A DNA stretch of 64,000 bases from Escherichia coli. GTDB taxonomy: Bacteria > Pseudomonadota > Gammaproteobacteria > Enterobacterales > Enterobacteriaceae. A model generated the notes under the pieces. It was not told the origin of the DNA, searched no databases, and saw only the letters and a list, made by a program, of their open reading frames with translations. Where the stretch lies: assembly GCF_003334255.1 (NCBI RefSeq), contig NZ_QOWU01000004.1. One strand, written 5' to 3'. Position 1 is the stretch's first letter. The number at the start of each line of letters is the position of its first letter. Shown here piece by piece: positions 48,906 through 50,123 of this stretch. The translations under genes were made by a program, and so were the position numbers.

Positions 48906-49502
48906 ATGAAAAAACCGAATCATTCCGGCAGCGGCCAAATCCGCATTATTGGCGGGCAGTGGCGAGGCCGTAAACTCCCGGTTCCTGATAGCCCAGGTCT
49001 GCGCCCCACCACCGACCGCGTACGCGAAACGTTGTTTAACTGGCTGGCTCCGGTCATTGTTGACGCCCAATGTCTGGATTGCTTCGCCGGAAGCGGCGCG
49101 CTGGGGCTGGAAGCGTTGTCGCGCTATGCTGCGGGGGCAACGTTGATTGAGATGGATCGCGCGGTTTCTCAGCAGTTAATTAAGAATCTGGCGACACTAA
49201 AAGCAGGCAATGCACGCGTGGTGAACAGCAACGCGATGTCATTCCTGGCGCAAAAAGGTACACCGCATAATATCGTGTTTGTCGATCCACCGTTCCGCCG
49301 TGGCTTGTTAGAAGAGACGATAAATTTACTGGAAGATAACGGCTGGCTGGCTGACGAAGCCCTGATTTATGTCGAAAGCGAAGTCGAAAACGGTCTGCCC
49401 ACTGTTCCAGCAAACTGGTCATTACATCGGGAAAAAGTGGCGGGTCAGGTGGCTTATCGGCTGTATCAACGCGAAGCACAAGGAGAAAGTGATGCTGATT
49501 AA
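48906..49502 (+). CDS. rsmD: 16S rRNA (guanine966-N2)-methyltransferase
   Basis: 198-aa ORF recognised as RsmD/YhhF. Confidence 0.9.
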   Translation: MKKPNHSGSGQIRIIGGQWRGRKLPVPDSPGLRPTTDRVRETLFNWLAPVIVDAQCLDCFAGSGALGLEALSRYAAGATLIEMDRAVSQQLIKNLATLKAGNARVVNSNAMSFLAQKGTPHNIVFVDPPFRRGLLEETINLLEDNGWLADEALIYVESEVENGLPTVPANWSLHREKVAGQVAYRLYQREAQGESDAD

Positions 49503-49761
49503 TATTGGTCGTTTGTTAATGCTCTGCGTTTGGGGATTTTTAATCCTCAACCTGGTGCATCCCTTCCCACGCCCGCTGAATATCTTCGTTAACGTGGCGC
49601 TGATTTTTACCGTGCTGATGCATGGTATGCAGCTGGCGCTATTGAAATCCACTTTACCGAAAGATGGCCCGCAGATGACCACCGCCGAAAAGGTACGGAT
49701 TTTCCTTTTCGGCGTGTTTGAACTGCTGGCCTGGCAGAAGAAATTTAAAGTTAAAAAATAA
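49492..49761 (+). CDS. yhhL: small inner-membrane protein (DUF1145-like)
   Basis: ORF track 49369..49761; start trimmed to ATG at 49492 (MLINIGRLLMLCVWGF, 89 aa), preceded by AGGAGAAAG. Confidence 0.8.
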   Translation: MLINIGRLLMLCVWGFLILNLVHPFPRPLNIFVNVALIFTVLMHGMQLALLKSTLPKDGPQMTTAEKVRIFLFGVFELLAWQKKFKVKK

Positions 49762-49763
49762 CC

Positions 49764-50123
49764 TTATTGTTCGCCTACAAAGCTGACAAAGCGCGTTCCT
49801 TTATAGCTCAGCGTACCTTTATCGCCCACTGTCAGGGCGTGGTACTGCTGGGCGTCGAGGCGAAACGTCTGCTCCATTCCTCCGCTTTGCGGTTTGAAGC
49901 TTGCCCCATAGCGTATACTGGTGCCTGCCGGAGTCACTTCCTGCTGGCGCGAACGGCGATCGTTAATCGGTTTTTCCCGCTTGTTGCTCACCACCACCAG
50001 CTTTTGCTGGAGCGGAGCCATATCATTATCAGCTTTTTCCCGTCGCTGTTGCATAAAACGAAACGATGCGGCGACGACAATTAAGCCAATGATAACAATA
50101 AAGAAAAGAGGTGGTTTGCTCAT
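49764..50123 (-). CDS. yhhM: small membrane-anchored protein of unknown function
   Basis: 119-aa ORF with an N-terminal TM helix. Confidence 0.8.
   Translation of the reverse strand: MSKPPLFFIVIIGLIVVAASFRFMQQRREKADNDMAPLQQKLVVVSNKREKPINDRRSRQQEVTPAGTSIRYGASFKPQSGGMEQTFRLDAQQYHALTVGDKGTLSYKGTRFVSFVGEQ

Follow-up and report, generated by a model that had tools for sequence, protein, structure and literature searches.

Anatomy of the compact rsmD-yhhL-yhhM locus of Escherichia coli, with a hairpin inside yhhL as the probable determinant of the yhhM mRNA 3' end

Introduction

The 3' ends of Rho-dependent mRNAs are placed precisely behind stable stem-loops with no U-tract (Dar and Sorek 2018, PMC6061677). 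Where two genes face each other on opposite strands and the transcript of one extends into the other, the pair is referred to as a convergent excludon; 165 such pairs, whose transcripts overlap in no fewer than half of 58 MG1655 transcriptomes, have been listed for E. coli MG1655 with ExcludonFinder (PMC12288877, Table 1). REP elements and their clusters, the BIMEs, are described in 3' UTRs of convergent genes in a recent preprint (bioRxiv 10.64898/2026.03.23.713779). Genes of one operon, finally, may be joined by stop/start overlaps, usually of 4 or 1 nt, through which their translation can be coupled.

All four arrangements bear on a short segment of the E. coli chromosome that carries rsmD, yhhL and yhhM, and most of its peculiarities are already on record. 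The overlap of rsmD with yhhL was pointed out in 2012 as a pair deserving a test (PMC3384335), the 3' end discussed below is found in a supplementary table of 2021, and the transcript overlap of yhhL and yhhM was published in 2025 (PMC7815308; PMC12288877). As a discovery the locus therefore matters little, the genes being annotated and both the overlaps and the 3' end being published. Its interest is that of a worked example of how an mRNA may end where intergenic space is lacking, with Rho acting inside the neighbouring gene and a protective hairpin lying in the codons of that neighbour. What we add is the proposal that a hairpin within yhhL, restricted to Escherichia, sets the 3' end of yhhM mRNA by a mechanism that is itself known.

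Results and Discussion

Gene coordinates and packing

The stretch analysed here, 64,000 nt in length and referred to as the window, belongs to the E. coli chromosome. Its segment 48800-51000 is 100% identical to strain G1/2 and was found in 5426 of 5426 complete E. coli genomes, in 5424 of which the yhhL/yhhM junction is intact. Locally the genes are arranged in the order ftsY(-), rsmD(+), yhhL(+), yhhM(-), yhhN(+), zntA(+), tusA(-), yhhQ(+). The features of the central part are as follows.

48906-49502, plus strand: rsmD coding sequence (ORF list, RefSeq, NCBIfam NF008157 and TIGR00095)
49480-49485, plus strand: Shine-Dalgarno sequence AAGGAG of yhhL, within the rsmD codons Gln-Gly-Glu, 6 nt 5' of the ATG
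49492-49761, plus strand: yhhL coding sequence, 89 aa, inner-membrane protein of the DUF1145 family (ORF list, RefSeq, profiles)
49762-49763, no strand: spacer 'CC', 2 bp between the convergent stop codons (sequence, RefSeq)
49764-50123, minus strand: yhhM coding sequence, 119 aa, DUF2500, an N-terminal membrane helix and a soluble domain with solved structures
50154-50183, minus strand: promoter-like site 5' of yhhM, ATGACA-18-TATGCT, by match to the consensus only

Read directly from the sequence, the rsmD stop codon TAA occupies 49500-49502, and yhhL runs from the ATG at 49492 to the TAA at 49759-49761, so that 11 nt (49492-49502) are common to the 3' end of rsmD and the 5' end of yhhL. The yhhM stop codon occupies 49764-49766 on the minus strand. 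The original prediction had placed the yhhL ATG 11 bp within the 3' end of rsmD and the ends of yhhL and yhhM 2 bp apart; both statements are borne out by the sequence and by the RefSeq coordinates.

That prediction depended on the starts and stops having been called correctly, and we checked whether the genes might in truth be far apart. Such a mis-calling could be imagined for yhhL, where residue 11 is an in-frame methionine and hence a conceivable alternative start. Against this, conservation of the YhhL N-terminus (MLINxGRLLML) across the family begins at residue 1, AAGGAG is likewise conserved 6 nt upstream of the ATG, and the NCBIfam equivalog NF008158 covers residues 1-89 of 89. In YhhM, Pfam DUF2500 extends over residues 5-115 and the PDB entries 2L0C and 3Q6C reach residues 116-117 of 119; the C-terminus is aligned with the family and the PDB chains up to 2-3 residues before the stop. 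Stop codons are, moreover, set by the sequence itself, and the RefSeq/PGAP ends of rsmD, yhhL and yhhM in strain G1/2 are the same as here. The gene calls stand, the genes are not well separated, and the mis-calling explanation, to which we would give almost no credence, is effectively refuted.

Packing of this kind is common in the neighbourhood. In the surrounding 50 kb, three of the seven convergent gene pairs are tight (yhhS/dcrB with a 3-bp gap, yhhL/yhhM with the 2-bp gap, ugpQ/yhhA with a 14-bp overlap), and 12 same-strand pairs overlap by 1-11 nt. Like yhhL-yhhM, the nearby pairs dcrB-yhhS and yhhA-ugpQ appear in the list of convergent excludons (PMC12288877). The packing of rsmD, yhhL and yhhM is real, ordinary, statistically not unusual and already catalogued.

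The rsmD-yhhL overlap

The product of rsmD is the 16S rRNA m2G966 methyltransferase, and the stop codon of the gene is contained in the conserved yhhL codons Ile3-Asn4 (ATT AAT). Its position within ATT AAT is identical in 71 of 81 loci; 61 of these 81 loci have the 11-nt overlap, with the yhhL ATG at the E. coli position, and in 10 others, from Kosakonia and its relatives, the likely yhhL ATG lies 6 nt further upstream, which lengthens the overlap with rsmD. AAGGAG or AGGGAG is kept upstream of yhhL in most of the 81. More distant DUF1145 genes (31-41% identity) are also found directly 3' of rsmD, overlapping it by 4 or 1 nt or separated from it by a 3-nt gap, with none of yhhM, yhhN and zntA nearby. 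Judged by these comparisons, the association of the two genes through an overlap is old and widely conserved.

The pair thus shares with translationally coupled operon genes the stop/start overlap on the same strand, the Shine-Dalgarno sequence located in the upstream gene, and the preservation of this arrangement in relatives, the order of rsmD followed by a DUF1145 gene being deeply conserved. It differs in the length of the overlap, which is 11 nt instead of the usual 4 or 1 nt, and in its open ribosome-binding site: in the RNA surrounding the yhhL start, structure does not exceed that of shuffled sequences (z +1.4). Since this region is unstructured, the strong Shine-Dalgarno sequence is probably directly usable, suggesting that coupling of yhhL to rsmD is not obligatory, dependence not being forced by RNA structure. 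In our reading, rsmD and yhhL would form an old two-gene operon in which the strong, unstructured ribosome-binding site of yhhL is embedded in the final rsmD codons. Ribosomes completing rsmD would halt 8 nt beyond the yhhL start and may re-initiate there, so that translation of the two genes may be coupled, and yhhL would at the same time be open to independent initiation.

Transcripts across the yhhL-yhhM junction

With no spacer between the convergent genes yhhM and yhhL, neither mRNA can end intergenically. The original prediction concluded from this lack of room that the 3' UTRs overlap or that transcription reads through, and named the positions of the 3' ends as a matter to be checked. 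Published data supply an answer on the yhhM side. The Term-seq data of Adams et al. (PMC7815308, Supplementary file 1) contain a dominant 3' end at MG1655 3605158 (-), labelled 'antisense yhhL', with 26,915 reads in LB at OD 0.4; it is listed in one of three growth conditions, and its sequence context is given as ...CGCCGAAAAGGAAAATCCGTACCTTTTCGGCGGTGGTCATCTG[C]. MG1655 coordinates were converted with an offset of 3555487 (MG1655 minus window), the 3' end being base 51 of the 61-nt context strings. As cross-checks, the yhhN (+) entry 'internal 20' and the minus-strand entries are consistent with this offset, and the dcrB (+) entry 3609992 falls at window position 54505, 37 nt downstream of the ATG at 54468. 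The end of the yhhM transcript accordingly lies at 49671 (-), inside yhhL and 93 nt beyond the yhhM stop.

49671-49763, minus strand: 3' UTR of yhhM mRNA, 93 nt, from the Term-seq end; wholly antisense to yhhL codons 60-89 and the stop codon
49574, minus strand: region of Rho termination antisense to yhhL (PMC7815308, Supplementary file 2), of low positional resolution

The second of these features is taken from DirectRNA-seq with bicyclomycin, an inhibitor of Rho, which gave a Rho score of 3.0 (p 2.3e-7) for MG1655 3605061 (-) (PMC7815308). The coordinate has low resolution because it is derived from 800-nt windows; it lies about 97 nt past the 3' end at 49671 in the direction of the transcript.

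Opposite-strand neighbours that face each other, with one transcript reaching into the other gene, are therefore documented twice over for yhhL and yhhM, by the 49671 end and by the ExcludonFinder table. The ExcludonFinder class shares with our locus the overlap of convergent transcripts at their 3' ends, and this exact pair is one of its members; nothing in that description differs from what is seen here, and it contains no anatomy specific to the pair (PMC12288877). The end mapped to the nucleotide is that of yhhM mRNA running into yhhL, and for rsmD-yhhL mRNA running into yhhM the evidence is the coverage-based excludon call. Between the yhhL stop and window position 50284, in yhhN, no plus-strand 3' end is present in the Term-seq list (PMC7815308), and the SMRT-Cappable-seq supplements do not mention the genes of this locus. 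The proposed overlap of 3' ends is supported, but it had already been published.

A hairpin within yhhL at the end of yhhM mRNA

Analysis of inverted repeats and of RNA folding revealed a hairpin next to the mapped end, within the coding sequence of yhhL.

49683-49714, minus strand: core hairpin, 11 bp, CGCCGAAAAGG / CCTTTTCGGCG, with a 10-nt loop
49666-49731, minus strand: extended imperfect hairpin with 28-nt arms

The perfect 11-bp arms of the core occupy 49683-49693 and 49704-49714, and the arms of the extended repeat 49666-49693 and 49704-49731. In the reading frame of yhhL, the core consists of GCC GAA AAG (Ala65-Glu66-Lys67) paired with CTT TTC GGC (Leu72-Phe73-Gly74); the codons of one triplet of residues are the exact reverse complement of those of the other, with one additional pair on each side. 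The yhhM 3' UTR together with the stop codon (96 nt, from 49766 down to 49671) folds with a dG of -28.9 kcal/mol (z -4.1), and pairing in the outer stem extends exactly to the mapped 3' end at 49671.

This stability exceeds what the protein sequence demands. When synonymous codons were permuted in a 78-nt region with the YhhL protein sequence kept, none of 1000 shuffles was equally stable: the natural sequence gave -33.3 (plus strand) and -34.6 kcal/mol (minus strand) against means of -18.3 and -16.6, respectively, corresponding to z of -5.2 and -5.7. Codons sampled from local codon usage gave z of -4.6 and -5.3. The region ranks in the top 0.8% of 78-nt windows over the 64 kb.

A GC-rich 11-bp stem that is followed on the plus strand by UGUUUG and has a Term-seq 3' end near it might be taken for an intrinsic terminator, Rho-independent and possibly bidirectional, serving both transcripts. 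Intrinsic termination calls for a U-tract after the GC-rich stem, preceded by an A-tract if the terminator is bidirectional, and the hairpin shows no such arrangement. On the minus strand, to which the 3' end was mapped, the core stem is followed by GGUGGUCAUCUGC and not by a U-run, and the sequence following the hairpin, GUGGUCAUCUGC, contains no U-tract. A consensus terminator scan had no hit near the junction on either strand; an Rfam scan of 48600-51100 (E <= 1) gave no match. As the published Rho score of 3.0 shows, read-through is sensitive to bicyclomycin (PMC7815308), and termination on the plus strand would truncate yhhL by 15 codons, whereas the Term-seq list contains no 3' end labelled 'internal yhhL'. 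An intrinsic terminator is thus very improbable.

Among the features by which Rho-dependent ends with a protective stem-loop are recognised are a stable stem-loop at the steady-state 3' end, no U-rich tract after it, and read-through upon inhibition of Rho, for which the score of 3.0 stands here (PMC7815308). In its precise end after a stable stem-loop, its lack of a U-run and its bicyclomycin-sensitive read-through, the yhhM mRNA resembles the described examples (PMC6061677). It differs from them in two respects. The stem-loop is located in the convergent neighbour, within the coding part, where it is made of reverse-complementary codons, and the sequence directly downstream is not C-rich. 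The C/G ratio of the minus-strand RNA is 0.78 from 49670 to 49560 and 1.47 from 49560 to 49400, so that C-richness starts beyond the first 110 nt past the hairpin, unlike the pattern in which a rut site follows immediately downstream.

We consider it very probable that this is an ordinary, catalogued locus of a compact genome, in which an operon meets a convergent yhhM whose transcription is ended by Rho, with probable trimming of the transcript to the hairpin encoded by yhhL and an excludon of at least 93 nt as the result. With yhhM and yhhL meeting without spacer, neither mRNA could end between the genes. The yhhM transcript would proceed antisense into yhhL, and Rho would terminate it roughly 100-200 nt in. 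The product would then most likely be trimmed by 3'-to-5' exonucleases back to the stable hairpin, which lacks a U-tract and is specified by yhhL codons 64-75, leaving the defined 93-nt 3' UTR that ends at 49671. In cells expressing both yhhL and yhhM, the two mRNAs would be complementary over at least 93 nt, and this overlap may have a regulatory effect.

The same end could also be envisaged as the work of RNase III or another endonuclease on the yhhL/yhhM duplex, given the classification of the pair as an excludon and the link of this class to RNase III processing (PMC12288877). Position 49671 coincides, however, with the point at which pairing in an intramolecular hairpin ends, which is the signature of exonuclease-protected Rho-dependent ends (PMC6061677), and endonucleolytic cleavage appears improbable. 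If trimming to the hairpin is the correct reading, recoding or deletion of yhhL should be expected to have side effects on yhhM mRNA.

The junction and the hairpin in other Enterobacterales

For comparison, one genome per species was scanned, which yielded 80 loci, all from Enterobacterales. Among the 61 loci having yhhM, the 2-bp gap is confined to E. coli, Escherichia sp. E1V33 and E. albertii. The distance between yhhL and yhhM is 21 bp in Salmonella, 20-116 bp in Citrobacter, 34-41 bp in Kluyvera, 24 bp in Kosakonia and 17 bp in Atlantibacter, and it falls to 0-8 bp in four distant lineages. In 17 loci yhhM was undetectable.

The spacers carry REP-type or GC-rich palindromes; in the window itself the REP motif CTTATCCGGCCT occurs in 7 copies against 0.3 expected. 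In genera with a spacer of at least 29 bp, it is the spacer that contains the most stable hairpin downstream of yhhM or from which this hairpin extends, and in those short-spacer genera that were re-scanned from upstream of the stop, the strongest hairpin spans the yhhM stop or lies in the spacer. In Escherichia it begins 52 nt inside yhhL. The REP-type palindromes in the spacers of Salmonella, Citrobacter, Kosakonia and E. whittamii are similar to the REP and BIME elements in 3' UTRs of convergent genes (bioRxiv 10.64898/2026.03.23.713779) and are placed where a shared 3' hairpin would act. Compared with the systems described there, the E. coli junction differs in having no REP, and its intragenic hairpin is not REP-like.

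Within Escherichia, E. whittamii has a 135-bp BIME-like insert at the junction, flanked by duplicated AAATAACC. This suggests that the 2-bp state is ancestral within the genus.

Excess stability of the hairpin is likewise a trait of Escherichia. Over the 81 loci the median z is -0.54, and the strongest values belong to the four Escherichia loci with the 2-bp gap (-5.4, -5.2, -4.8 and -2.9). Next come Pseudocitrobacter (-3.0 and -1.95), Kluyvera ascorbata (-2.6), Pseudenterobacter (-2.2) and E. whittamii (-1.9); the excess is significant in Escherichia and one Pseudocitrobacter only. The 22 bases of the core stem are invariant within Escherichia, where two synonymous sites in the loop vary, and E. 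whittamii has two C-to-T changes that turn G-C pairs into G-U pairs. Synonymous sites of the stem show 0 changes at 8 sites within Escherichia, with a handful elsewhere, a sample too small for statistics.

Two broader generalisations were considered and rejected. Deep conservation of the hairpin is contradicted by Citrobacter and Salmonella, which have no in-register stem, and by the median z of -0.54; in Kosakonia an apparently compensatory pair, K67Q (AAG to CAG) together with CTT to CTG, keeps the stem, yet it is not more stable there than synonymous shuffles are (z -1.0 to +0.9). A rule by which a small gap implies an intragenic hairpin fails in Chimaeribacter, Pluralibacter, Enterobacillus and Samsonia, where the gap is 0-8 bp and excess stability is not significant. 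The link between the missing spacer and the intragenic hairpin is suggestive and draws, within Escherichia, on a single evolutionary event.

One tentative interpretation, which we regard as possible but doubtful, is that yhhL of Escherichia has been selected for the codon palindrome GCC GAA AAG / CTT TTC GGC as a means of protecting the 3' end of yhhM mRNA. The palindrome would have replaced the spacer REP hairpins of the sister genera, allowing the loss of the spacer or following it. If true, two constraints would act on the same DNA segment, that of the YhhL protein and that of keeping the neighbour's mRNA stable.

The junction might also be viewed as an adaptive switch that makes expression of yhhL and yhhM mutually exclusive. 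The membership of the pair among the excludons (PMC12288877), the fixation of the junction across E. coli, and a core stem without changes among E. coli, E1V33 and E. albertii, against variable synonymous sites in the loop, would be compatible with it. Yet most other genera have a gap of 17-137 bp with hairpins in the spacer, yhhM is missing from 17 of 80 related loci, and a BIME-like insert, ISApl1 and a 2-kb Hcp island have all been accommodated at the junction. We therefore hold a switch to be unlikely. Such junctions shift rapidly between genera.

Encoded proteins and the zntA neighbourhood

The three genes downstream of rsmD had been described as encoding small membrane proteins of unknown function, located next to zntA. 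The features concerned are the following.

50264-50890, plus strand: yhhN coding sequence, 208 aa, polytopic; YhhN/TMEM86 family, annotated as lysoplasmalogenase
50900-50921, no strand: perfect palindrome ACTCTGGAGTCGACTCCAGAGT, 43-64 nt upstream of the zntA start
50964-53162, plus strand: zntA coding sequence, Zn/Cd/Pb P-type ATPase (ORF list, RefSeq)

The description fits YhhL, which scores 173 bits with NF008158 (cut-off 118) and matches Pfam DUF1145 (PF06611) with an E-value of 1.6e-26; this is a small family, of 89 clusters at 50% identity. YhhM, with its 119 residues, fits loosely. It matches DUF2500 (PF10694, E-value 2.8e-26) and has the PDB relatives 2L0C, 3Q6C ('probable receptor YhhM') and 3RD4, and these solved structures represent the soluble, non-membrane domain. 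The N-terminal MSKPP of YhhM has been used to model how ribosomes drop off and re-initiate at consecutive prolines, an effect alleviated by the elongation factor EF-P (PMC8934632). For YhhN the description holds poorly. This protein of 208 residues belongs to PF07947 (E-value 5.3e-47), and lysoplasmalogenase activity is reported for YhhN/TMEM86 members from rat liver and Mycobacterium tuberculosis (PMC9052158, PMC3137066); for the E. coli protein, vinyl-ether hydrolase activity is putative.

As to the neighbourhood of zntA, nothing in this analysis points to a functional link of yhhL, yhhM or yhhN to zinc export. The association is real as an enterobacterial gene order, yhhN and zntA following yhhL in most Enterobacteriaceae loci, but it does not extend deeper: in Hafnia, Chimaeribacter, Enterobacillus and Samsonia no zntA occurs within 5 kb, and the distant DUF1145 loci have neither it nor yhhM and yhhN. 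The palindrome at 50900-50921 was matched by the terminator scan and was rejected as a terminator, as we take it to be the palindromic ZntR operator in the zntA promoter.

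Insertions between yhhL and yhhM

The yhhL/yhhM junction is kept in 5424 of the 5426 complete Escherichia coli genomes. In one of the remaining two, that of E. coli MRY15-131 (locus L083, 2604–3578), a transposase of the IS30-like element ISApl1 lies exactly at the junction, and the insertion has cut yhhL to 264 nt; the other gave no match. A 135-bp REP/BIME-like insert separates yhhL from yhhM in Escherichia whittamii (L005, 5271–5407). This insert is bordered by duplicated AAATAACC, the duplicated stretch including the yhhL stop codon, and seems to have entered a 2-bp junction secondarily.

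In three further loci the two genes are separated by an island of 1.7–2.2 kb.

Islands between yhhL and yhhM
L009, 3943–6114: Citrobacter youngae
L015: Citrobacter werkmanii
L039, 5277–7003: Trabulsiella guamensis

The C. youngae island encodes an orphan Hcp/TssD protein (TIGR03344, 186 bits). Both this island and that of T. guamensis also encode two uncharacterised membrane proteins of ∼295 and 140–200 aa, which are possibly an effector-immunity pair.

Related loci in other genomes

Near-identical enterobacterial rsmD-yhhL-yhhM-yhhN-zntA loci were found on two contigs of the same ancestor-isolate series (L052 and L065), whose labels read 'Chryseobacterium sp. 18061' and 'Citrobacter sp. 18056'. 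The Chryseobacterium label appears to reflect a mislabelled or contaminated assembly. In a distant gammaproteobacterium (L089, 5837–8267), a heavy-metal efflux cluster (HMBD, CusB-like and RND pump) lies ∼1.5 kb downstream of the rsmD-DUF1145 pair, and the intervening stretch holds a 116-aa ORF and a cytochrome gene in convergent orientation. The resemblance of this arrangement to the zntA neighbourhood of E. coli is probably coincidental.

Other tight convergent junctions in the window

Besides yhhL/yhhM, the window contains two very tight convergent junctions, both of which are also included in the published list of excludons (PMC12288877).

Further tight junctions
55025–55029, convergent: dcrB/yhhS, 3-bp gap
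31869–31882, convergent: ugpQ/yhhA, 14-bp overlap

A Rho region antisense to dcrB is present in the data of Adams and co-workers (PMC7815308).

Published 3' ends and a palindrome near the locus

The same Term-seq data place a plus-strand 3' end at position 50284, 20 nt inside yhhN, with 1022 reads, a Rho score of 0.89 and an intrinsic terminator score of 2.5 (PMC7815308). It could belong to a short yhhN leader transcript or, alternatively, mark where transcripts reading from rsmD-yhhL through yhhM come to an end. On the minus strand, a 3' end supported by 23,187 reads maps to position 48724, 32 nt inside ftsY (PMC7815308). Immediately preceding it is an A7...U7 hairpin (AAAAAAAACGTGGCTTTTTTT).

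Upstream of zntA, a 22-bp perfect palindrome (50900–50921), beginning just 10 bp past the yhhN stop codon, scores as a terminator-like site on the minus strand. We take this palindrome to be the ZntR operator in the zntA promoter.
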